Source: a virus
Direction: 5' to 3' (one strand)
DNA length: 64,000 nt
Virus record (IMG/VR): IMGVR_UViG_3300045988_104111
Location: 18,282 to 82,281 of that record
Shown here: positions 8,013 through 39,030 of the stretch, piece by piece
How the letters are laid out: the number at the start of each line of letters is the position of its first letter
How positions within the stretch are numbered: the first letter of the stretch is position 1
Translations under genes and position numbers: made by a program
The notes under the pieces: generated by a model
What the model saw: only the letters and a program-made list of their open reading frames with translations
What the model was told of the DNA's origin: nothing
The model's database searches: none

Positions 8013-8405
8013 TTAATATCCATAATGAACCACAATCAATTTAGCTCTATCAGATCCCCATCGTGTCTTATCAAAGCTATCTAGTACAGCTTTCAACACA
8101 AACAACCGTCTATGATCCTCACCGTTCTCAATCTGATTATTGACCCACTCTTTTACAGTATCAATGTCAGCATACATCATTGGTTCATCATAGGCATCTA
8201 ACAGCTCTGTGTTTTCCCAGTCTTGATTTCTAGGATTATCATGGTCAAATCCAAGGAAATCACCATCTAGCTTTTTGCTGAATAACTCTGCCCATCCAGA
8301 ATCATAACCCATTTTGCACATATCTACTGCGGCAATTACCTCATTGTAGATGTAGGTATTATTGCTAATCCTACTGCAAATATATACCTTGCTTTCGTAA
8401 CCCAT
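8013..8405 (-). CDS. Hypothetical protein
   Basis: ATG at 8405 is preceded by cAGGAGGttgttttata. The longer start at 8447 would read through the promoter -10 at 8438-8443. Confidence 0.55.
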   Translation of the reverse strand: MGYESKVYICSRISNNTYIYNEVIAAVDMCKMGYDSGWAELFSKKLDGDFLGFDHDNPRNQDWENTELLDAYDEPMMYADIDTVKEWVNNQIENGEDHRRLFVLKAVLDSFDKTRWGSDRAKLIVVHYGY

Positions 8406-8437
8406 TATAAAACAACCTCCTGTTCTTTGATAAATCA

Positions 8438-8466
8438 AGTATATCATAGAATCAGGAGGTTGTCAA
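8438..8466 (-). promoter_or_regulatory. Sigma70-type promoter (TTGACA-17-TATACT)
   Basis: Minus strand reads cTTGACAacctcctgattctatgaTATACT. -35 at 8461-8466, -10 at 8438-8443. Confidence 0.7.
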
Positions 8467-8658: not shown

Positions 8659-10268
8659 TTAAAATATTCACTCCAATCAATTTCATTTTCATTTGGTTTA
8701 TCAATAATTTCATATCGCTCAATGATTGCTTGTGGCTTAATCTGACCATTATATTCATTCAATCCAAGTGATACTACAACCTCTACGGATTTACCTTGAG
8801 CAGATTCAAATTGACTTACTTCTTCATTACTAACAAAGAATTTAATAAACTCAATGCCATCCTGAACCAGTTTGACAGTAGTTGAACGATTACGATATAC
8901 ATAAATCTGAGGAGATGTTAAAGTACAATGAAATAACGGTTTGTTTACATCCTTGCCCCATAGGATATTATTTTCTACACATAGATTTGTAAGATTGCGT
9001 GTGATATTATTAGGCTTGATCTGAGCCGCCACCTCAATATCTGGCTCTACGTCCAAATCAAGTCCATCTAAGAATCGCGCAAATCGCTTTAGGTTGGACT
9101 TCTTCACGCTGATACCAGCAGCCGCGCTATGCCCTTGACATTTGGCCAATCCTGATTTATTAATAGTCTCAAGCAAATCAATAGGACTGCGCATCGAGCC
9201 AGACCATGTTGTGCTGTTTAGCTCTCTCAGTAGGAACGTGGGCTTGTTGTATTTGCCACAAAATTTATTGGCTACAAGCCCTAAATAAGATTTATTCTCA
9301 GGTTCGCCAAATCCGATAATAACCTTGTGAGACGTATCAAGTCCGTCTGATAGCTTATCTACTACTTTCTTTACCTGATAATCCTGCTTAGATTTTACGG
9401 CTTTCATGGCCTTTACAGCAGCTTCTGGCTCAATCTTGCCAATCAGCGCATCAAAAAATAGCCGTTTAGTAGACTGGTCATCACTACGAGCAAGCGCATT
9501 AGCAAGAGGCGCAATACCAAATGCCACACCCTCTGGATTAACGCCACGATTGCAACAATGCTCTAAGCAGTATTTGATGAATGGATTAGTTGGATTAGTT
9601 AATCCGTCATATACATATTTGCGGTTCTCAGGTGAATGCAAGCTGCAAATATCAGAGATTAGACTAACAGCTACCAAATCCTTGAAAGATTGCTTAAAGT
9701 CAAGCGCACAAGCAAATTTTTCTACAACGCCTGTGCCGCTAATGTCTGTATTGATATTCGGCGCATTGTCGGCTCGATACGGGTTGACTACAACGGCGTG
9801 TTGATTCTTTCGCTCAATGATATGGTGGTCAAGAACAAGACAAGTGCATTTATGCTGTTCCAGCTCTAAACAAGCGTCATTTTCATTAGAGCTTGAATCA
9901 GGCAAGATAAGAAAATCAATATGCGCATCAATAATATCTTGCATCAGGTCTTGTATACCATGCTGCTTTCCAGAATGGAATAGTACTACTGGTTCTTTCT
10001 TTCCAAATTCTTTACATAGCAAATATGCGATTGCCGCTGATAAGTTGCCATCTCCGTCAGAATCGGCAACGATGCCAATTTGAATATCGTCATTAGCATA
10101 CTTGAACATATCAACAGCCACATCCATATTCTTATACATATCAGGCGATTGATATTCAATATTATCTGGATTTAGATATGAGTCAATATCATCTATACCA
10201 CAAGCGGATAAATATGATTGAATGAATGTATTCTCGTCTATATTATTTAATAGTGGTGATATTTTCAA
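8655..10268 (-). CDS. recJ: RecJ-like single-stranded-DNA exonuclease (DHH family)
   Basis: DHH-family motifs VADSDGDGNLSAA, LVLDHH, and DHHA1-like GHSAAAGISV. Confidence 0.75.
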   Translation of the reverse strand: MKISPLLNNIDENTFIQSYLSACGIDDIDSYLNPDNIEYQSPDMYKNMDVAVDMFKYANDDIQIGIVADSDGDGNLSAAIAYLLCKEFGKKEPVVLFHSGKQHGIQDLMQDIIDAHIDFLILPDSSSNENDACLELEQHKCTCLVLDHHIIERKNQHAVVVNPYRADNAPNINTDISGTGVVEKFACALDFKQSFKDLVAVSLISDICSLHSPENRKYVYDGLTNPTNPFIKYCLEHCCNRGVNPEGVAFGIAPLANALARSDDQSTKRLFFDALIGKIEPEAAVKAMKAVKSKQDYQVKKVVDKLSDGLDTSHKVIIGFGEPENKSYLGLVANKFCGKYNKPTFLLRELNSTTWSGSMRSPIDLLETINKSGLAKCQGHSAAAGISVKKSNLKRFARFLDGLDLDVEPDIEVAAQIKPNNITRNLTNLCVENNILWGKDVNKPLFHCTLTSPQIYVYRNRSTTVKLVQDGIEFIKFFVSNEEVSQFESAQGKSVEVVVSLGLNEYNGQIKPQAIIERYEIIDKPNENEIDWSEYFN

Positions 10269-11040
10269 TACGTCCTAATGTCTCCTTTGTTATTTTAGTC
10301 ATTTCTATATGTGACACGTCAATATTTTCATTAAAATACGGTGAACATTCTTTGTAAAACAACTTGTGAGCATATTTATATAGTGCATCCGCATCTGCTT
10401 TATTCACATATCCTCCTAAATAATAATGAACTTCACAATATGTGATTTGAGCAATATATTTTTGCCACTTTTTATTAAAAGTTATTGGGTTTCTTATTCT
10501 ATTTGCTATATTTTCTCGTCTTGTTACAAGTCTTAAATTGATGGAAGTATTATTATCTACATTTCTATCCTTATGATCTATATCTTTCGATTTGTCTATA
10601 GCATCATTGTGAACATGCTCATATATAAAAGCGTGTAGTAAATAAAATTTTTTGTCACTTTTTATTTGAGTAGTCCAATATCCGTTCTTGCCCTTTTTCC
10701 AATAAAAATCTTTTACAAATGGTATAACTGACGTATCTATGATTGCATAATGTTGTCGAGATTTATCAAATAGATATGTTACATCTCCGTGTTCTTCATA
10801 ATAATTTTTACAATATCTTTTATTTTTGTTCTCTATAGAAGTTTCCCTTGCACGCTCTAACATTAAACAACCACAAGATTTCGTATGACCACATCTAAGC
10901 GTATCAGACCTTATTATCTTGATGTTTCCGCAATCGCACTGACATTTCCAGAGTGCAACATTCTTTCTATTACTGCCACATCTTTCCAATACAATCAATC
11001 TACCGAATCTTTGTCCGGTTAAGTCTATGGATTTACTCAT
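10243..11040 (-). CDS. HNH homing-endonuclease-like protein (free-standing)
   Basis: N-terminal Cys cluster WKCQCDCGN...CGHTKSCGCL. C-terminal IDHKDRNVDNNTSINLRLVTRRENIANR (HNH_3-type). No SD in front of the ATG. Confidence 0.75.
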   Translation of the reverse strand: MSKSIDLTGQRFGRLIVLERCGSNRKNVALWKCQCDCGNIKIIRSDTLRCGHTKSCGCLMLERARETSIENKNKRYCKNYYEEHGDVTYLFDKSRQHYAIIDTSVIPFVKDFYWKKGKNGYWTTQIKSDKKFYLLHAFIYEHVHNDAIDKSKDIDHKDRNVDNNTSINLRLVTRRENIANRIRNPITFNKKWQKYIAQITYCEVHYYLGGYVNKADADALYKYAHKLFYKECSPYFNENIDVSHIEMTKITKETLGRIENITTIK

Positions 11041-11138
11041 TTTTTATAACTATTCCCTTAAAAATGTGGCTTCATTAAGGGAATTAAGTAGTGGATGAAT
11101 TTTAATATAAAATCAACCTCCTTATTATTGATATAGTG

Positions 11139-11167
11139 ATTATATCATAAAGAGGTTGATTTGTCAA
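11139..11167 (-). promoter_or_regulatory. Sigma70-type promoter (TTGACA-17-TATAAT, extended TG)
   Basis: Minus strand reads cTTGACAaatcaacctctttaTGaTATAAT. -35 at 11162-11167, -10 at 11139-11144. Confidence 0.7.
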
Positions 11168-11494: not shown

Positions 11495-11523
11495 AGAATA
11501 GCACAAAAACATTGATTTGTCAA
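11495..11523 (-). promoter_or_regulatory. Sigma70-type promoter (TTGACA-17-TATTCT)
   Basis: Minus strand reads cTTGACAaatcaatgtttttgtgcTATTCT. Weaker -10 than the others. Confidence 0.45.
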
Positions 11524-13377: not shown

Positions 13378-14846
13378 TTTGCATATATCAACCTTGTTCT
13401 TTGAAGCTGTATTGGATTGTCGAACTTGCTCGTTACAAAACAATCCTTTGTTCGTCCAGTATTCAAATCAAGATGAAAATATATTTTAATACCCTGTTCA
13501 ACTTGAGAGAACCGCATTTTATAAATATGCAGTATGCGATTTGGTTTTGTTTTATCAGGATATTTTTCCATCATCATATCAGCTATTTCTTGCTCTTTAC
13601 GGCGCAACGGCATAATTACGCCAGCTACATCAGCCTTGTTCTGAATTGCTCTTGAACCAGCTGCAACACCGCTATCCATAATTTCCTGTGTCATAGCATT
13701 AGCATTGACCTGAGTAAATGTCAAGACGGCTATATTATATTCAACAGCCAAATCTTTGAGCTTACTTGCTATACCAGATAGCACTTGATCTGAACGAGTA
13801 GACACGCCATTCTTTTTAGCCAAATCGCTTGATACAGATGATGATTCAACGATATAGTCATAACAAAGATAGCCTACATTTTTGTTTACAACATAATCCT
13901 TTACATACGATTCAATCAAATCAACAGTATAATTAGGCATGGTGACGATATATAGCTTAGATTCATGTAGAATTTTAATAGCCTCATCTACACGTTCTTC
14001 TTCGCCTTCTTCATATCGCCCATTCAAGATGCTAAAGCATGGTACGCCGCTAATTGTAGCCACAATCTTAGGCGTGATTTCAGTATCACCAGCCATCTCA
14101 AATTGGAGATATAGACCAGCTTTATGCTGATAACATGGATTATCTACATATTGCCCTTTGTCCATATCATATATTTTAGGACAACATACTTGTACAAGGT
14201 TGGCTAAGCCGATAGTTGACTTGCCTACACCTGATCCGACTGAATAGATGGATAACTGCCCCGGAATCCAACCCCTAGCAGCTGTGTTCAAATATTCGCT
14301 AAAGGTCGTTGCGCCGAATAGCGGCTCTGCCTTAAAGCCCTCTTTAATCGCTTCAAATCCGTCGCCAGCTTTTAGCTCATCTATATCTTTATCTTTGTAG
14401 AATTGCTTTTTTATAGCTATCTGCTGTGCGTCAAAATATTGTACTATGTCCTCTATTGTCGCTTTATTATCTTGTTCAAATTTATCTATGTTGTATCCAA
14501 CTGTCTTGTATGAGCGAAGCAATGTAGCTCGTCGCGTGTTGTTGTAATAGACCTCAAAGTTCCCAACATTAGCAAGTTGCTTAACCGTATCAATAAAATC
14601 ATCTAATTGATTCAGCTTGAATATATCCTCTACTTGCTTATTGTTCTTACATAGCATATAGAGGTCTAGTGCGGATATGGATTCAGCGCCACGACGACTA
14701 AGAGCAACGCAGCCCTGCCACAATCTGAGATGAAAATCAACCGTGAAATCATCACGGCTTAGTGGGTATTTGTCAGAAATAGCAAGAGAGGGCTTGATTA
14801 GCAAACAACCCAATAGCAGCCTAACAGAATTTTGGTCATAGAGCAT
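13374..14846 (-). CDS. dnaB: DnaB-family replicative helicase
   Basis: DnaB-like N-terminal domain (SVRLLLGCLLIKPSL). Walker A is SVGSGVGKST. RecA-like C-terminal half. Sits next to the primase. Confidence 0.75.
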   Translation of the reverse strand: MLYDQNSVRLLLGCLLIKPSLAISDKYPLSRDDFTVDFHLRLWQGCVALSRRGAESISALDLYMLCKNNKQVEDIFKLNQLDDFIDTVKQLANVGNFEVYYNNTRRATLLRSYKTVGYNIDKFEQDNKATIEDIVQYFDAQQIAIKKQFYKDKDIDELKAGDGFEAIKEGFKAEPLFGATTFSEYLNTAARGWIPGQLSIYSVGSGVGKSTIGLANLVQVCCPKIYDMDKGQYVDNPCYQHKAGLYLQFEMAGDTEITPKIVATISGVPCFSILNGRYEEGEEERVDEAIKILHESKLYIVTMPNYTVDLIESYVKDYVVNKNVGYLCYDYIVESSSVSSDLAKKNGVSTRSDQVLSGIASKLKDLAVEYNIAVLTFTQVNANAMTQEIMDSGVAAGSRAIQNKADVAGVIMPLRRKEQEIADMMMEKYPDKTKPNRILHIYKMRFSQVEQGIKIYFHLDLNTGRTKDCFVTSKFDNPIQLQRTRLIYAK

Positions 14847-15328
14847 TACCCAAACACATCCTCCTCATCATTTCTTTTCACAATCGTCTCAACCCCATCT
14901 TCAGCTTGCCATTGCTGTATATTCTGTCTTACCTGATTTAGCCAAGTATAATATTTTTTGGCGCTGTCATATTTATATTTGACTAAACCAAGCGGCGATT
15001 TAGATATATCCAATCCTTGCTCTTTATGGATATATCTGATAGTATAAGCAATGCCGCCATATGTCATATCAGGATTATCTTTCATCAACTGAGCAAGCTG
15101 TATGCCCACAAGCCGCATATTAGCATCAGGGGCAATTTGGCGTATATAATCTAGCAACTTGCGCCTATCATCTTTTGATTCTGTCTTGGGCTTAGCGGTA
15201 TGAGCATTGATGTAATCTTGCTTACATTGCTCACAGCAGAAATAGAATTTAGGCTTATATTCGATTGCATCTTGTTTTGGCGTTGATTTACCGCATTGAC
15301 GGCATTTAATTGTAGATGACTTGCTCAT
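14846..15328 (-). CDS. Hypothetical zinc-ribbon protein upstream of dnaB (candidate loader/organiser)
   Basis: ATG at 15328 is preceded by AGGAGGttgtttt. Contains CRQCG...CCEQC. The functional guess rests on position only. Confidence 0.45.
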   Translation of the reverse strand: MSKSSTIKCRQCGKSTPKQDAIEYKPKFYFCCEQCKQDYINAHTAKPKTESKDDRRKLLDYIRQIAPDANMRLVGIQLAQLMKDNPDMTYGGIAYTIRYIHKEQGLDISKSPLGLVKYKYDSAKKYYTWLNQVRQNIQQWQAEDGVETIVKRNDEEDVFG

Positions 15329-15359
15329 AAAACAACCTCCTGTTTCATTTGTTGATTTG

Positions 15360-15388
15360 ATTATAGCATAAAAATAGGAGGTTGTCAA
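15360..15388 (-). promoter_or_regulatory. Sigma70-type promoter (TTGACA-17-TATAAT)
   Basis: Minus strand reads cTTGACAacctcctatttttatgcTATAAT. -35 at 15383-15388 overlaps the stop of the upstream gene. Confidence 0.7.
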
Positions 15389-17465: not shown

Positions 17466-17494
17466 ATTATATAATAAAAAGGCGGGATTGTCAA
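17466..17494 (-). promoter_or_regulatory. Sigma70-type promoter (TTGACA-17-TATAAT)
   Basis: Minus strand reads cTTGACAatcccgcctttttattaTATAAT. The -35 lies in the loop of the terminator hairpin. Confidence 0.7.
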
Positions 17495-17503
17495 GCCCCC
17501 GCC
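17475..17503 (-). terminator. Rho-independent terminator after the SSB-like gene
   Basis: Minus strand GGCGGGggcttgacaatCCCGCC followed by TTTTTATTAT. Confidence 0.6.
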
Positions 17504-17520
17504 TTTAATATTTTTATAGA

Positions 17521-19216: not shown

Positions 19217-19417
19217 TTACACCTCCTCTAATTTTACACAATATTTTAATTCTTGGAAGATACAATCCTCACAATTAAACGTATTGTAGCAACATTCTTT
19301 GCAATTCTTTGGTACATCATATCCCATATCGCTATACCAATCGTATTGCCTATCAAGCGCAATCGGGCAATACCCGGTCACACATTCATTTGCACAAAAT
19401 CCTTTACATTTCTTCAT
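19217..19417 (-). CDS. Small Cys-rich hypothetical protein
   Basis: ORF track. 10 Cys in 66 aa. Confidence 0.45.
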   Translation of the reverse strand: MKKCKGFCANECVTGYCPIALDRQYDWYSDMGYDVPKNCKECCYNTFNCEDCIFQELKYCVKLEEV

Positions 19418-22400
19418 ATTTCTTCCAACATTTCATTTCGACAATTTTTTCTGGCAATGTCACCCATTCACCATTTTCATCTTTTTTCATTTTATTTTTC
19501 TCTTGCAATACAGCTCTGATCACATCGCCTTTTTCTAATTGATGATTTGCCCAGAATTTCTTATTGGCTCTATATGTGCGTTCTGATCCATAACAAATGT
19601 TATAAACTGAGATATAAACAGTGCCATATCCTGTTGTCTTAACATCTAGCACTAGCCAATCATTAGGGTCTGAATTGGGGTCATTGCCATCTACATATCC
19701 TAATAGCTCGATCTGCCATTTCAGCTTGTCAACAACGGTCGTTTTAGGCATTTTCATTGAGCGTAGAATTGACAGGATAATGCCGCGATTATCAAGATGA
19801 CTAGCTGTTTTCTCTGTCATCTTTCCAGCATACGGCTTGAGCATATCTACATTATAACCCATTTCAGCCCATTTGTCAAGCTTAATTGTCTTGCATTTTG
19901 AAAATTTATTAAAAATCTCAATACCTAACAATAGTGCCTTAGCTGGGCCAAATTCTGTAAAATAACCAATCTTAACCAAAATGTCAAGTTGTCGCGCATC
20001 TGGCTTTGCTTCAAGCTGTTGGATGGCGAATAGCACATCAATAAAATTCTTAAACCGCATATCACGCATACCATATAATGCCTCAGCTACATCGGCGCTC
20101 ATATACTTGATTGAGCCAAGCCCCTTATAGATTGTATTTTCATCTGTATCACAAAAATAATCTGAGCGAGAATGACGGAATTTAGGAGATTTTATTTTAA
20201 TGCCGACCTTATGAGCATATGCCGTTAATGCCGCTGTCTTTTCCTCTTTGCCTTGATTGATATTCATAGCAACTGTAAGGAATTGAAGCGGATAATGGTA
20301 TCTGAGCCAACCTGACACATATCCCTCATAGCTATATGGCTGACTATGATTTAGAGAGAATAGATAATTGCTAGCATCAATAATAACTTGGATAAAATCA
20401 GCTATGACCTTATCTGATTCGTTTTGGTTCATATTGTGTCGCTCTGCCATTGTTTTAGCAAAGCCAGCCTTGATTTGTGGTATATCCTTGTCTGTACCCG
20501 TCTTTTTAGCAAAATGGCGGCGCACAACATCGGCTTCGCCCATAGTATAACCACAATATTCATGTAAGAATTGAATGATTTGACACTGGAATACAAGGTA
20601 GCCAAATGTCGGCTTCATAAATTCATCAATCGCCGCATTTCCAGATTTACGGATAACGCCATTAGCAAGGCCATCACGATATGACGCACCAGCAGGACGA
20701 ATTGCGCCATTACCGATTGATAGCAATGTCATATAGTCAATGTTTGGATTCAACGCCTTAAATTTCTGAATATTAGACTCAGATAAGAGCTGCTTGATAT
20801 ATCTATCACCAGTTGTGCCTTCCCACTGAAAAATAGCCGTAGTATCATCTCTGATACTATCCCATACGGCTTTGTCATTTATATCAACATTGTCAGGCGT
20901 TAGACGCTCAATACCAGCTAATTTACACGTCTCATTGATTAGTTCAATGGTATCAAGCTTGAGCAAATCGAGCTTAACATAATTCTGTAAATCAACCTCT
21001 TTCATATTGATTTGGCTGATTGGTACATCATCTGTTGACGTAGTAAATAATCCCATACGGTCATCAATAGAATGAGGTGATACAACTAAGCCACAAGGAT
21101 GGTTGCCAACTGATACAACGCAACCATTTACAATATCGACATATTTGAATAGCTCCGGATATTTAACACGGCATTTGTCCTCGTCTTGTTCTACGGCATT
21201 ACATATTTGCCCCACTTCATCAAGTGGCATTTCCAACGCTCTGCCAACATCACGAATAGCGCCCTTTAGAGCAATCGTATTAAATGTGACAATATCAGAA
21301 CAATACAACCCATGCTTGTTAAATATATATTGCTTGACCTCGTTGATTCTGCTAGGAGGAAAATCTGTATCAATATCCGACAGCGATACGCGCTCCGTAT
21401 TCATGAATCGCTCAAAATTAAGCCCATGCTTGATGCTATCCATCTCAGTAATACCAAGCAGATAAGCAATGACTGAACCGTTGCATGAACCGCGCCCATA
21501 TCCTACAAGAATGTCCTGCGTCTTGCACCATGCTATAATGTCCTCCATGAGCAGCATAAAGTCAATCGCGCCATTATGGACATATGCTTTCATCTCGTAT
21601 TCAATGCGGTCTATGTATTCTCGATAATTAGGCAGCTTGTCAACACCGCGCCACACAATACCATCTGCGATCTTAGCTCTAAGAACATCCTCGCTATCAT
21701 CGCCCCATAGATGCGGATACTTATAGCTATAATCAAGCTCGAACGGCTCAATCATATCAGCTACAGTATTCGTCATCTCAATAGCATCCAAGTACACATC
21801 TATAGGCAGCGCGTCCTGCATACGGCATAATTGCACCAACTCATCATAACTCATCATTTCAAGATGAAATTTATCTTCACCGTCAAAATGAATATTCTTT
21901 GCTTTTTGTAGAATTTTGCGTCCCTCTACATGAGTAGAATTGAGCGCATGAGTATCGGTACACATCAATAGCCGCAAACCGCTTTGTTTAGATAGCGTCC
22001 ATAATGTATTATTATAGCTCTTTTGAGCGGGGTCAAGATGTGGCTGAATCTCAAGAAAACATCTGTCTTTGTGTTCACATAGCCAATGGTAAAAATCCCA
22101 TCGAACATCATCTGGCGCTTTGTTCAATACGCCACCAAGACAAGCCGTAGACACAATGATATTATCGCTGGTATTCTTTACATCCTCAATCGTGATTCGT
22201 GGCACATAATAGAATGAATTATCGTCACGATTAAATGCTTTGCTTGATAACTTGTTTAGCTCTAATACGCCATCATAATTTTTAGCAATTAGCAAACAGT
22301 GATAATTGTCTCGGATTTTTTCTGATAGTGTCTGAGTTAGATAAAATTCCTGAGCGTGAATATATTTCATACCCATTTCTTCGGTATGCAATTTCTTCTT

Positions 22401-22565
22401 TACCCATTGAAATACAGAACCATGCTCAGAAAACGCCATTGCCTTCATTCCTAGTTCTGCGGCGCGGTCTATATATTGGTCATATCGTGTTACAGAATCT
22501 ATATTAGTTACTCCGTTAGATAACATAGAATGAATATGTAGGATTGTATAATTTTCGTTCATCAC
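19404..22565 (-). CDS. dnaE: DNA polymerase III alpha subunit (DnaE-type)
   Basis: PHP domain ILHIHSMLSNG, FSEHGSV. Polymerase core GYGRGSCNGSVIAYLLGIT and SLSDIDTDF. Start is GTG 22565 or ATG 22562. Confidence 0.85.
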   Translation of the reverse strand: MMNENYTILHIHSMLSNGVTNIDSVTRYDQYIDRAAELGMKAMAFSEHGSVFQWVKKKLHTEEMGMKYIHAQEFYLTQTLSEKIRDNYHCLLIAKNYDGVLELNKLSSKAFNRDDNSFYYVPRITIEDVKNTSDNIIVSTACLGGVLNKAPDDVRWDFYHWLCEHKDRCFLEIQPHLDPAQKSYNNTLWTLSKQSGLRLLMCTDTHALNSTHVEGRKILQKAKNIHFDGEDKFHLEMMSYDELVQLCRMQDALPIDVYLDAIEMTNTVADMIEPFELDYSYKYPHLWGDDSEDVLRAKIADGIVWRGVDKLPNYREYIDRIEYEMKAYVHNGAIDFMLLMEDIIAWCKTQDILVGYGRGSCNGSVIAYLLGITEMDSIKHGLNFERFMNTERVSLSDIDTDFPPSRINEVKQYIFNKHGLYCSDIVTFNTIALKGAIRDVGRALEMPLDEVGQICNAVEQDEDKCRVKYPELFKYVDIVNGCVVSVGNHPCGLVVSPHSIDDRMGLFTTSTDDVPISQINMKEVDLQNYVKLDLLKLDTIELINETCKLAGIERLTPDNVDINDKAVWDSIRDDTTAIFQWEGTTGDRYIKQLLSESNIQKFKALNPNIDYMTLLSIGNGAIRPAGASYRDGLANGVIRKSGNAAIDEFMKPTFGYLVFQCQIIQFLHEYCGYTMGEADVVRRHFAKKTGTDKDIPQIKAGFAKTMAERHNMNQNESDKVIADFIQVIIDASNYLFSLNHSQPYSYEGYVSGWLRYHYPLQFLTVAMNINQGKEEKTAALTAYAHKVGIKIKSPKFRHSRSDYFCDTDENTIYKGLGSIKYMSADVAEALYGMRDMRFKNFIDVLFAIQQLEAKPDARQLDILVKIGYFTEFGPAKALLLGIEIFNKFSKCKTIKLDKWAEMGYNVDMLKPYAGKMTEKTASHLDNRGIILSILRSMKMPKTTVVDKLKWQIELLGYVDGNDPNSDPNDWLVLDVKTTGYGTVYISVYNICYGSERTYRANKKFWANHQLEKGDVIRAVLQEKNKMKKDENGEWVTLPEKIVEMKCWKKYEEM

Positions 22566-22872: not shown

Positions 22873-23514
22873 TCATTTATAATTCACCGGCATAACCACA
22901 CCATCTCCATTTTCAGCTTTGAGATAAATTGGTCCGATTCTGTTTGCCGCATACGCCTTACAATCAGGCAGACATTCCATAGCGTTAAGCAAATACTGCG
23001 GATTGACCCAAAGATTCAATTCCTCATTGAGCAGATAATCAGCTACTTTCTTGGGATTATTCTTCTCCTTGATTTTATGCGTCTTGATATATACCTTGAG
23101 TTTGCCAATATCAGGAAGGGTAATTTCTTTTCCAAAATCAGGCTTTCTAACAATATATTCAAGTTGCATTTCCTGTCCATGATATTTTTCATCAATTTCA
23201 GGTAGAAACTGCTTTTCATTGAATCTAATAGCTACAAACCCATCGCATACACAATATTTTGTTTCACCGTATTTATCTTTGTTCTCGAACATGCCTTCAA
23301 GCACAGGACGCTTGCTAGATTTAGCGTTCTTAATGATACGGTTAGCTGCATTCACGATTGACTTTGTACCAGATTTCTTGGACTGCTCAATGAGCATATC
23401 AGATTCAAGAGATTTGAGAACGTCCAGCATTTCATTCTCCATCATAAGAAATCCTTCATCGTGAATCTTAATGCTCCAAGATTTGATAATGTAATACAAT
23501 TTTTCAGTAGTCAT
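22873..23514 (-). CDS. Hypothetical protein adjacent to dnaE
   Basis: ATG at 23514 is preceded by aaaGGGGcggttgttgtt. The alternative ATG at 23535 would be almost leaderless. C-terminus is GPIYLKAENGDGVVMPVNYK. Confidence 0.55.
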   Translation of the reverse strand: MTTEKLYYIIKSWSIKIHDEGFLMMENEMLDVLKSLESDMLIEQSKKSGTKSIVNAANRIIKNAKSSKRPVLEGMFENKDKYGETKYCVCDGFVAIRFNEKQFLPEIDEKYHGQEMQLEYIVRKPDFGKEITLPDIGKLKVYIKTHKIKEKNNPKKVADYLLNEELNLWVNPQYLLNAMECLPDCKAYAANRIGPIYLKAENGDGVVMPVNYK

Positions 23515-23546
23515 AACAACAACCGCCCCTTTCATTTGATACTTGG

Positions 23547-23575
23547 ATTATATCATAGATTGGAGCGGTTGTCAA
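23547..23575 (-). promoter_or_regulatory. Sigma70-type promoter (TTGACA-17-TATAAT, extended TG)
   Basis: Minus strand reads cTTGACAaccgctccaatctaTGaTATAAT. Confidence 0.7.
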
Positions 23576-27161: not shown

Positions 27162-27190
27162 AGTATAGCACCATAGCGGCGATTTGTCAA
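27162..27190 (-). promoter_or_regulatory. Sigma70-type promoter (TTGACA-17-TATACT)
   Basis: Minus strand reads cTTGACAaatcgccgctatggtgcTATACT. The -35 overlaps the stop of the upstream ORF. Confidence 0.65.
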
Positions 27191-27611: not shown

Positions 27612-27653
27612 ATTTTAGAAAAATCCCTACAATCTTTCAACCATAGGGATTTT
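27612..27653 (-). terminator. Rho-independent terminator after the HU gene
   Basis: 10-bp stem AAAATCCCTA / TAGGGATTTT (27620-27629, 27644-27653), followed on the minus strand by a T-rich run. Confidence 0.6.
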
Positions 27654-28445: not shown

Positions 28446-28540
28446 TGGTACTCCCGCTCCGACTCGAACGGAGATCGTGCAGCAATCTACTACCTTATGC
28501 CGGGTATAAACCGGTTGTCCTACCATTGAACGACGGGAGC
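28446..28540 (-). tRNA. tRNA with long variable arm, anticodon loop UUUAUAC (anticodon UAU by standard numbering), encoded CCA
   Basis: The minus strand GCUCCCG-UC-GUUC-AAUGGUA-GGAC-A-ACCGG-UUUAUAC-CCGGC-(25-nt variable region)-CUCCG-UUCGAGU-CGGAG-CGGGAGU-A-CCA folds as follows. Acceptor stem of 7 bp with G1-U72. U8 present. GG in the D loop. TPsiC-type loop UUCGA. Confidence 0.7.
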
Positions 28541-30929: not shown

Positions 30930-31420
30930 TTCAATTTTCATTCCACGATTGTAAATATCGATTCCGATTTTAGAATTTCATTTTCCACATATACTTACAA
31001 TCTCGCAAATCAATTTTCATTTTCCAACTCGTGCATATATAGATATCTATATACATACACATATACAATAACAATAATCATTATCATTTTTTATCTGCAT
31101 ATACATTTACATATTCATATGCAGATACATCTACATCATCATGCATATAAATGATGTAGATAGATTGATTGATGAATAGATTTACACATATATAGATACA
31201 TATATACTAATATTACATATTATATTAGCATCAAAGTCAATATGTCTATATATCCATCAGTACATTTATTCACACATTCACATTTTTCATATGAATATAT
31301 GTGAACATTCACACATTTTTCCAACGAGTTTATGTATTGATTTGCTACTTTTCTATATAGATATATACTATTAACATCAATCTATTGCATACGCACATTA
31401 TCTTGTATGGATATAATGCT
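30930..31420. repeat. AT-rich non-coding region dense in short inverted and direct repeats
   Basis: Examples: a 10-bp IR ATCTGCATAT/ATATGCAGAT (31093-31102 / 31117-31126); an 11-bp IR ATCTACATCAT/ATGATGTAGAT (31129-31139 / 31151-31161); and repeated ATTCACACATT units around 31265-31320. No credible ORF. Confidence 0.6.
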
Positions 31421-38691: not shown

Positions 38692-38712
38692 TTATTTTCA
38701 CCTCATGTTGTA

Positions 38713-38741
38713 ATTATATCACATCAATTTGCATTTGTCAA
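38713..38741 (-). promoter_or_regulatory. Sigma70-type promoter (TTGACA-17-TATAAT, extended TG), proximal leftward promoter
   Basis: Minus strand reads cTTGACAaatgcaaattgatgTGaTATAAT. Confidence 0.7.
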
Positions 38742-38772
38742 GCATAATTTTTGACAAATTGATTTTTCACAT

Positions 38773-38820
38773 CAATTTAACTATTATCTATGAATTTATG
38801 AATAGATAATAGTTAAATTG
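38773..38820. repeat. 18-bp perfect inverted repeat with 12-nt spacer in the control region
   Basis: CAATTTAACTATTATCTA (38773-38790) and TAGATAATAGTTAAATTG (38803-38820). Confidence 0.8.
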
Positions 38821-38909
38821 TAATTATATATTATTATACTAGATATTATAGCATATAAATATTACAGTATTATGAACTATATGTTAATAAATTATGAATA
38901 TATTTATAC

Positions 38910-38938
38910 TTGACAAATACTGTAATATATGATATAAT
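38910..38938 (+). promoter_or_regulatory. Sigma70-type promoter (TTGACA-17-TATAAT, extended TG), distal rightward promoter
   Basis: cTTGACAaatactgtaatataTGaTATAAT. Confidence 0.65.
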
Positions 38939-38957
38939 ATATATAATAATATAAGAG

Positions 38958-38986
38958 ATTATATCACATCAATCAATTTTTGTCAA
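38958..38986 (-). promoter_or_regulatory. Sigma70-type promoter (TTGACA-17-TATAAT, extended TG), distal leftward promoter
   Basis: Minus strand reads cTTGACAaaaattgattgatgTGaTATAAT. Faces the plus promoter at 38910-38938. Confidence 0.65.
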
Positions 38987-39001
38987 GTATAAATTTTAGT
39001 A

Positions 39002-39030
39002 TTGACAAATAATCAATTATATGATATAAT
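39002..39030 (+). promoter_or_regulatory. Sigma70-type promoter (TTGACA-17-TATAAT, extended TG), proximal rightward promoter
   Basis: aTTGACAaataatcaattataTGaTATAAT, followed by AAGGAGG at 39044-39050. Confidence 0.7.

Follow-up and report, generated by a model that had tools for sequence, protein, structure and literature searches.

Promoter spacers complementary to the downstream Shine-Dalgarno region form repeated hairpin cassettes in an uncultured phage

Introduction

Why should the spacer of a phage promoter be the reverse complement of the ribosome-binding site that lies just beyond it? The question is raised by a stretch of 64,000 nucleotides (nt) of the IMG/VR virus record IMGVR_UViG_3300045988_104111, referred to here as the window, in which the sequence just downstream of the -35 element of four promoters is complementary to the Shine-Dalgarno (SD) region that follows. 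An earlier note, made from the sequence alone, had listed the four pairs and proposed a modular device that either terminates upstream transcription or silences the translation of read-through RNA. The four promoters, each with its pair of arms, are described here as cassettes S1 to S4; all of them lie on the minus strand and point leftward. Our preferred reading, which we consider probable and hold with moderate confidence, is that each cassette serves as promoter, as terminator or attenuator and as ribosome-binding site in one, and so insulates one transcription unit from the unit upstream of it. The source would seem to be an uncultured Bacillota phage, to judge from its distant relations in GenBank and from its DnaE-type polymerase, for which the best match, at 49% protein identity, is to Clostridioides phage pCD1602_4. 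A megablast search of the GenBank phages with 5 kb around the site gave no match.

Results

When the coordinates were re-derived, the arm pairs of S1, S2, S3 and S4 were all located on the minus strand at the positions given in the earlier note (Table 1). The cassettes are built in the same order, with a perfect TTGACA, a 17-nt spacer, a TG followed by the -10 box TATAAT (TATACT at S1), a strong SD some 25-30 nt past the -10 box, a short T-rich run and, in all except S3, a start codon. The 5' arm starts from the G or the A of TTGACA and takes in the next 8-13 nt of the spacer, while the 3' arm consists of the SD and the following 4-6 nt. The -10 box is therefore in the loop of the hairpin at all four sites, as had been claimed, and with it the expected start, which is predicted from the sequence. 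The stems contain 11-16 contiguous pairs, G-U pairs included, and further pairing of the TG/-10 region with a conserved ATCAAA box raises the whole helix to 17-21 bp. A whole cassette occupies about 65 nt of an intergenic region of about 70 nt. Boxes resembling ATCAAAT(G/A)AA are seen about 6-16 nt past the -10 box of the leftward promoters at 8466, 11167, 17494, 23575, 27190 and 29549, at the predicted transcription start, and in read-through RNA they pair partially with the TG/-10 region; such a box may be a preferred initial transcribed sequence or a site for a regulator.

The SD of S4 is non-canonical, GGGGCGG, and the 5' arm of S4 carries the matching changes, CCGCUCC, so that three pairs are altered on both sides relative to S1 and S2. 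The lone mismatch noted earlier in the S4 pair is a U-G wobble. The SD arm leads directly to the next gene at S1, S2 and S4, as the note had it for every cassette, but at S3 a 69-nt leader separates it from the gene at 10243-11040, which encodes an HNH endonuclease according to the PHROG HNH families and Pfam HNH_3. This leader has a 10-bp hairpin of its own, ATTCCCTTAA/TTAAGGGAAT (11084-11052, minus strand), the 3' arm of which covers the only SD-like sequence in the leader, AAGGGA. The beginning of the leader is common to several relatives (contigs L021, L025 and L026); in others the SD arm of the S3 type is followed immediately by the ATG of a gene, which varies from one to another.

Chance cannot account for the four pairings. 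Two instances of the pattern ACAACCTCC-N25-45-GGAGGTTGT are present in the window, where 100 shuffles give an expectation of 0.00. In a wider set, comprising the 84 distinct TTGACA-N16-18-TATAAT promoters of the window and related contigs, the -35-proximal region was compared with the downstream 40-90 nt and scored by stem length, with G-U pairs counted as half. The scores are bimodal, 36 of the 84 promoters reaching at least 10 and the remainder falling between 3 and 8. A scan of the whole window for stems of at least 9 bp with loops of 10-50 nt found no further stem of at least 11 bp with an SD as its 3' arm, and pairing of this kind was not found at the promoters at 27190, 29549, 30921, 38741, 11523 and 3920.

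Folding of the two predicted RNAs from each site gave a consistent picture. The read-through RNA folds at -27.8 kcal/mol for S1 (z-score -6.2), -19.3 for S2 (z -3.3), -23.4 for S3 (z -6.3) and -25.2 for S4 (z -5.1), with the SD within the stem in every case, so the proposal that read-through RNA can form a hairpin that buries the SD is borne out in silico. The corresponding values for the RNA from the predicted local start are -7.2 (z -0.8), -6.2, -5.1 and -3.9 kcal/mol; at no site does this RNA fold better than its dinucleotide shuffles, and the hairpin is not formed, in keeping with the claim that local transcripts lack the anti-SD arm. Control promoters without the arm also fold like shuffles.

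The architecture is not confined to the window and is common to related uncultured phages, Clostridia metagenome-assembled genomes (MAGs) and Kayvirus phages of Staphylococcus. Pattern scans of IMG/VR returned 33 loci with the arms of S1 or S2, 13 loci in a second register, denoted NN, and about 20 contigs with cassettes of the S4 type, and near-identical copies of the cassettes are present in dozens of IMG/VR contigs. A scan of genome contigs with 19 specified bases served mainly as a noise control, since it gave mostly chance matches across all phyla, as expected (about 110 by our own estimate), and just a few matches in Clostridia MAGs (L058, L079 and L119) look real. These three have the same promoter/anti-SD/SD design, with arms that pair perfectly over 19 bp in L058, an uncultured Clostridia MAG contig of 96.7 kb, and the contigs may be phages or prophages. 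A conserved inverted repeat, TTGACAACCTTGCC-N39-GGCAAGGTTGT, is shared by some 50 IMG/VR contigs (L167-L244, for example L171, L189 and L198). It has neither a -10 box nor an SD and was set aside as unrelated.

Among the relatives the two arms change together. The stems lengthen past the nine pairs imposed by the search with sequences specific to each lineage (CCTCCTGATT/AATCAGGAGG, CCTCCTGTTCA/TGAACAGGAGG, CCTCCTTGT/ACAAGGAGG and CCTCCTTGGG/CCCAAGGAGG). In the NN register both free positions are paired in seven of the eight distinct cassettes, as AA/TT, TG/CA, AG/CT or GA/TT, and the single cassette that fails to pair has no -10 box. In relatives of the S4 type each altered position is still paired, whether by a G-U wobble or by a restored Watson-Crick pair, the variants GTT/AGC and GCT/GGT being fully paired through G-U. 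The anti-SD occurs at three different offsets within the spacer, and so a single MAFFT alignment of all 39 cassettes, which has no single structure, was rejected and covariation was instead counted in the 18 cassettes that share one register, aligned with MAFFT. Standard pairs fill 92% of the cells of this alignment, compared with 36-58% when the partner is slid, and changes on both sides are seen in 7 of the 15 pairs. The covariation score is 0.219 against 0.080 for shuffled alignments, with none of 500 shuffles attaining the observed value; in all of these counts columns 7-15 and 52-60 are fixed by the search pattern in many rows, and the informative columns are 10, 13 and 16-20 with their partners. 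The compensatory changes that the earlier note had proposed to look for are thus present.

The positions at which only one side has changed bear on whether the pairing acts in RNA or in DNA. Among the internal positions that are not Watson-Crick, 12 are of the G-U type and 5 of the A-C type. With the S4 variants these represent, by our own count, about 10 against 3 independent events (p of about 0.05 under a neutral 1:1 expectation). It is conceivable that the arms are an inverted repeat acting at the DNA level, either as a cruciform or as half-sites for a regulator on the two sides of the -10 box; transcription factor sites are in some cases palindromes overlapping promoters, LexA providing an example. 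Such an explanation seems scarcely credible here, given that the sequence and spacing of the arms differ among the four cassettes and the arms covary freely across phages, while loops of 21-32 nt make a cruciform unlikely. The bias towards G-U in the sense strand favours an RNA helix over a palindrome in DNA. On these alignments the device is real and conserved and the hairpin appears to be a selected RNA structure, because the one-sided changes are mostly G-U in the sense RNA.

A counterpart for which transcription data are available was found by searching the GenBank phages with the 81-nt S1 cassette using BLAST. The match, at 77% identity over 72 nt, is to the intergenic region between PhoH and ORF060 of Staphylococcus Kayviruses. 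The site in phage GH15 reads TTGACAAACCTCTTTAGTTATGATATACT...ATAATAACTAAGGAGGATTTTTTATG, with the -10 box looped out between a 5' arm in the spacer and a 3' arm that is the SD, and then a run of U residues; it folds at -20.7 kcal/mol (z -4.6), and the Kayvirus counterparts span -18 to -21 kcal/mol. In the transcriptome of vB_SauM-515A1 the orthologous site is the early promoter p59, which initiates TU11 (Table S2 of PMC7698491), and the same 74-nt sequence is the Rho-independent terminator t60 (Table S3 of PMC7698491). Both were called from steps in RNA-seq coverage, initiation being placed 6 bp past the -10 box, and the text of that paper is silent on the overlap of p59 with t60, on the SD and on its masking (PMC7698491). 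These published data show, for an analogue, that a single sequence can have both promoter and terminator activity. The Kayvirus site has the same architecture as S1-S4, from TTGACA and the anti-SD within the spacer through the looped -10 box to the SD arm, the T-run and the ATG, whereas it differs in having a longer U-tract (7 U) and in being apparently the sole clear copy in the first 50 kb of GH15. The Kayviruses are not close relatives of the window phage, with its DnaE-type replicase, and the likeness may be convergent. The tables of PMC7698491 also place a -35 element in the loop of a canonical terminator at p68/t69, p195, p205 and p208, and p47_1/t48 combines a looped -10 box with a 3' arm other than an SD.

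The composition of the tail between stem and start codon points in the same direction as t60. Over 35 distinct hairpin cassettes, which are not phylogenetically independent, this unpaired stretch is 75% T, 22% A, 3% C and 0% G, while 62 promoter-SD-ATG units that lack the hairpin have 24-29% T and 38-47% A in the equivalent stretch. A T-rich run does follow the stem, as the earlier note had it. This bias is a requirement of an intrinsic terminator and is not needed for masking the SD. It counts, as does the drop in coverage scored as a terminator in the Kayvirus counterpart, against the possibility that the cassettes are solely translational locks of the T4 gene e or I-TevI type, with read-through RNA made at full level, untranslatable at the cassette gene and never terminated. 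The temporal logic of the T4 examples is also absent, since no difference of class separates the local promoters from those upstream. What speaks for a pure lock is that the SD is always within the stem, that the gap in stability between read-through and local RNA is wide, that there are precedents in T4, in Aeh1 and at sigG of B. subtilis, and that cassettes of the S3 type precede an HNH endonuclease and other accessory genes, as in T4. On balance we regard it as unlikely. The tail and Kayvirus t60 together are why we suppose that selection acts on termination too.

The converse possibility is that the hairpin is an intrinsic terminator and nothing else, the SD having become the 3' arm because it is the sole G-rich block beside a U-rich run in a short intergenic region, with no selection for masking. 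The assignment of t60 as a terminator and the T-rich tail are as expected on this basis; the stem-loops of the promoter-early stem-loop (PeSL) cassettes of T4-like phages function as terminators, and the hairpin of S3 is intact in the window despite an SD that has no start codon. The same genome, on the other hand, has compact canonical terminators within promoters that spare the SD. Two such elements, here called type B, have the -35 in or beside the loop of a canonical hairpin in which the SD takes no part (17506-17478 and 27653-27620; Table 1), the element at 17506-17466 being equal in design to Kayvirus p68/t69. That a terminator alone has no need of the SD, as type B shows, is our main reason for supposing that masking is among the functions selected. 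Sub-canonical U-tracts at S1-S4 would moreover be expected to allow much read-through, and on such RNA the SD is necessarily paired. A terminator without selected masking is accordingly, in our estimation, a doubtful explanation, if a serious one. In the region from 7 to 27 kb canonical terminators are not in excess (13 compared with 10.4 in shuffles), so that the hairpin cassettes and the type B element at 17506-17466 mark most of the boundaries between successive leftward promoters; the leftward promoter at 11523 has neither.

Table 1. Positions of the cassettes, their arms and cargo, and of the type B elements in the window
Feature	Position	Strand	Description
S1 cassette	8403..8466	-	-35 TTGACA 8466-8461; -10 TATACT 8443-8438; predicted start ~8431; tail TTATA
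S1 arms	8464-8453; 8422-8411	-	5' arm GACAACCTCCTG; 3' (SD) arm CAGGAGGTTGTT
S1 cargo	8013-8405	-	ATG 8405-8403; coding sequence of a 130-amino acid (aa) ORFan
S2 cassette	15326..15388	-	-35 15388-15383; -10 15365-15360
S2 arms	15386-15376; 15341-15331	-	5' arm GACAACCTCCT; 3' (SD) arm AGGAGGTTGTT
S2 cargo	14846-15328	-	ATG 15328-15326; coding sequence of a 160-aa protein; phrog_4680, function unknown
S3 cassette	11110..11167	-	-35 11167-11162; -10 11144-11139; no start codon directly after the SD arm
S3 arms	11162-11147; 11125-11110	-	5' arm AAATCAACCTCTTTAT; 3' (SD) arm ATAAGGAGGTTGATTT
Region 3' of S3	10243..11109	-	69-nt leader (11041-11109), then HNH endonuclease gene (10243-11040)
S4 cassette	23512..23575	-	-35 23575-23570; -10 23552-23547
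S4 arms	23573-23562; 23529-23518	-	5' arm GACAACCGCTCC; 3' arm GGGGCGGTTGTT (variant SD)
S4 cargo	22873-23514	-	ATG 23514-23512; coding sequence of a 213-aa ORFan
Type B element 1	17466..17506	-	Hairpin AAAGGCGGGGG-cTTGACAa-TCCCGCCTTT (17506-17478), -35 in loop; T-run into -10 17471-17466
Type B element 2	27612..27653	-	Hairpin AAAATCCCTATGG-TTGAAA-GATTGTAGGGATTTT (27653-27620); -35 TTGAAA 27640-27635 in or beside loop; -10 TAAAAT 27617-27612

The size of the helix raises a further possibility, that the hairpin is a processing site for the double-strand-specific RNase III at which the upstream and downstream mRNAs are separated. RNase III substrates have about two turns of double-stranded RNA, and processing by this enzyme separates mRNAs in T7 and in the early RNA of the Bacillus phage SP82, the latter being a substrate of the B. 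subtilis enzyme. The helix of S1-S4, with its small internal loops, is about the size of such a substrate. Cleavage in the 3' arm would nonetheless destroy the SD, and the T-rich tail would be left unexplained. A search of Rfam with the cassettes gave no match, hence no similarity to any curated RNA family, and a model based on the early RNA of SP82 and SPO1 was dropped as the host-takeover promoters of SPO1 have no anti-SD arm in the spacer. Processing by RNase III as the role of the hairpin seems to us quite improbable.

The position of the upstream stop codons is relevant to translational coupling, in which the SD on read-through mRNA would open only as a ribosome finishing the upstream open reading frame (ORF) melts the 5' arm. 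At S2 the TGA stop of the ORF upstream sits within the -35 element and the 5' arm, and at S4 the upstream stop is 9-10 nt before the stem, both of which would suit coupling. At S1 and S3 the stops are 16-17 nt upstream of the stem, out of reach of a terminating ribosome, and the genes upstream of the cassettes differ among relatives, making coupling a very improbable general function.

Comparison of the relatives showed that the genes on either side of the cassettes are variable. Across 19 related contigs the S1 cassette hardly changes, yet the genes that follow differ; past it come none, one or two unrelated small ORFs (130, 82, 57-63 or 88 aa) and then a conserved gene A, which begins ATGCAAGACG, and its upstream neighbours vary too. 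The cargos of S2, S3 and S4 vary likewise, that of S2 being either a 160-aa gene or ORFans of 45-55 aa. The cargos have no Pfam match, apart from HNH_3 in the window and a DruA/Mom-like domain in contig L015. The cassettes mark slots at which ORFan genes are exchanged between relatives. In one relative (L030) a 16-nt SD arm with its tail, AGGAGGTTGTTTTATA, is repeated after the 63-aa cargo, just before gene A and about 200 nt past the S1 cassette. From its sequence this repeat looks like the footprint of an insertion or recombination at the SD arm.

Several other features of the window were observed. Positions 38700-39030 form a divergent control region, probably an early/late switch, with four promoters of perfect consensus, two in each direction. 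Long imperfect inverted repeats of 36-37 nt (I2, I3) enclose three of the four, and a perfect 19-bp inverted repeat is found at 38773-38820 (arms 38773-38791 and 38802-38820, 10 nt apart). Two hairpins of 12-13 bp lie side by side (31162-31128 and 31127-31092) in the AT-rich non-coding stretch at 31090-31250 (minus strand), together with repeats of the motifs ATCTA/TATAT; the stretch may be an origin or have some other regulatory role. The ORF of the DnaE-type polymerase (19404-22565) holds a perfect TTGACA-17-TATAAT promoter at 19851-19879 (minus strand), and an unusually long tRNA-Ile of about 92-95 nt, with the anticodon TAT, was found at 28446-28540 (minus strand) by both ARAGORN and Rfam.

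Discussion

The reading that the cassettes insulate adjoining transcription units would operate as follows. Polymerase arriving from upstream would copy both arms, that is the end of the -35 element with the early spacer and the SD with the bases next to it, and the read-through RNA would fold into the hairpin, after which the U-rich tail leads to the start codon. At a first level the hairpin would be an intrinsic terminator or attenuator acting at this tail, termination in the window phage probably being partial because the U-tract is sub-canonical. At a second level it would keep the SD double-stranded on any read-through RNA, with poor translation of the downstream gene as the outcome. The local sigma-A promoter would initiate about 6-7 nt past the -10 box, in the loop, giving RNA without the 5' arm that is not terminated and has a strong, free SD. 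For the window phage we infer the start sites, the termination and the translational masking from the sequence and from the parallels described above. As the unconstrained spacer, the G-rich SD and the U-rich stretch between SD and AUG are all reused, the arrangement would add no length to the intergenic region.

A number of observations weigh against this reading. The U-tract is weak, with only 3-4 T in the 8 nt past the maximal stem at S1-S4 (4-5 if the terminal G-U pair is open) and a mean of 4.2 over 18 arm families, where Kayvirus t60 has 7 of 8. The base of the stem (ACAA/UUGU) is rich in A-U, and a scan for consensus terminators with loops of at most 8 nt calls none of S1-S4; inner pairs cut the apical loops at the four sites to 5, 7, 9 and 19 nt, where a canonical intrinsic terminator has a G+C-rich stem, a loop of 3-8 nt and 5 or more T among the first 8 nt past the stem. 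The local and upstream leftward promoters are all of the TTGACA-17-TATAAT type and look like one sigma-A class, which leaves the silencing of read-through without an obvious temporal purpose. A ribosome terminating at the stop codon within the 5' arm of S2 would melt the stem and could expose the SD, and at S3 the SD arm has no start codon in the window, so masking there has nothing to regulate. Finally, the device is present at just 4 of about 13 strong leftward promoters of the window, and two others use the type B overlap; the earlier picture, in which each gene block depends on its own promoter, is for this reason not taken as general to the leftward promoters.

If the insulating cassette is as proposed, a promoter, a terminator and a ribosome-binding site are packed into about 65 nt, with the unconstrained part of the promoter spacer serving as the anti-SD strand. 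The signature, TTGACA followed by an anti-SD and about 40 nt later by an SD, would locate the boundaries of transcription units and hypervariable accessory slots in uncultured Bacillota phages, and the cassette offers a ready-made compact insulator for annotation and for synthetic biology.

The earlier note did not know the arrangement as a described regulatory module. Its logic is, however, familiar from T4, Aeh1 mobE, B. subtilis sigG and the PeSLs, and with promoter-coupled terminators and IS10 added to these the principle is already established and no new mechanism is involved. For e, soc, 49, I-TevI/II/III and segB of T4 and mobE of Aeh1, the SD is hidden on RNA initiated upstream and a nested promoter removes the 5' strand. 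The two classes are alike in that a stable helix buries the SD on upstream-initiated RNA and a promoter within or over the 5' strand yields RNA lacking that strand, at S1-S4 at the level of sequence. The T4-type hairpins are often attached to homing endonucleases or accessory genes, and S3 likewise precedes an HNH endonuclease. They differ from S1-S4 in that T4 uses nested promoters of a later temporal class (late or middle) that lack a -35 element, whereas S1-S4 have a full sigma-A -35/-10 promoter of the same class as those upstream. In S1-S4, moreover, the spacer of the cassette's own promoter is the 5' arm, and the U-rich tail probably makes the hairpin a terminator as well, unlike in the T4 class.

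At sigG of B. subtilis the RNA that reads through folds a large hairpin by which its translation is blocked, and transcripts from the sigG promoter itself cannot form this hairpin; IS10 is protected from external promoters by the same principle. These are single cellular or transposon loci rather than a repeated module, and the spacer of a consensus promoter does not provide their 5' arm, as it does in S1-S4. The promoter-coupled terminators described by Fletcher et al. (2026, preprint) share with S1-S4 the use of the same DNA for terminator and promoter. They are matched more exactly by the type B elements at 17506-17466 and 27653-27612, the stem-loop coinciding with the -35 element and the T-tract coming just before the -10 box. 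They terminate transcription about 10 bp before the start site, whereas the tail of S1-S4 is about 30 nt downstream of the predicted start. The SD as 3' arm is particular to S1-S4; that geometry is absent from Fletcher et al. (2026), the text of which makes no mention of the SD.

The closest parallel in genomic behaviour is with the PeSLs, promoter-terminator cassettes that shuffle ORFans in T4-like phages (Arbiol et al., 2010; Comeau et al., 2014). A PeSL resembles S1-S4 in being a conserved cassette that holds, within about 70-100 bp, a strong sigma-70-like promoter, a stem-loop, an SD and a start codon, in recurring within its genome (the window has four copies of its cassette), and in flanking ORFans and marking points of insertion, deletion or replacement between close relatives. 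The PeSL stem-loop terminates or attenuates upstream transcription, as those of S1-S4 probably do, and recombination between PeSLs yields mini-circles. The stem-loop itself is different. In PeSLs, whose hosts are Gram-negative, it is short and G/C-rich and lies between the -35 and -10 elements, over the -10 box or upstream of the promoter, to the exclusion of the SD, an arrangement that is found in type B. In S1-S4 the SD, some 30 nt past the -10 box, is the 3' arm. A wider interpretation, which we put forward tentatively and consider possible rather than probable, is that the cassettes are the counterpart of PeSLs in phages of Gram-positive hosts. They would be widespread portable modules, the arms of which recombine to swap ORFan, anti-defence or homing endonuclease cargo, and the two-level SD/anti-SD lock would leave an inserted gene under the sole control of its own promoter. 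Uncultured Bacillota phages, Kayviruses and Clostridia genomes would then have this solution in common, with Kayvirus p59/t60 recorded but not recognised as a module. What is particular to S1-S4, compared with all of these systems, is that the promoter spacer is the 5' strand and the SD the 3' strand, from which it follows that the termination point would lie downstream of the local start, and that the device is modular, with four copies in one genome, three registers and many relatives, and is tied to hypervariable gene slots in phages of Gram-positive hosts.

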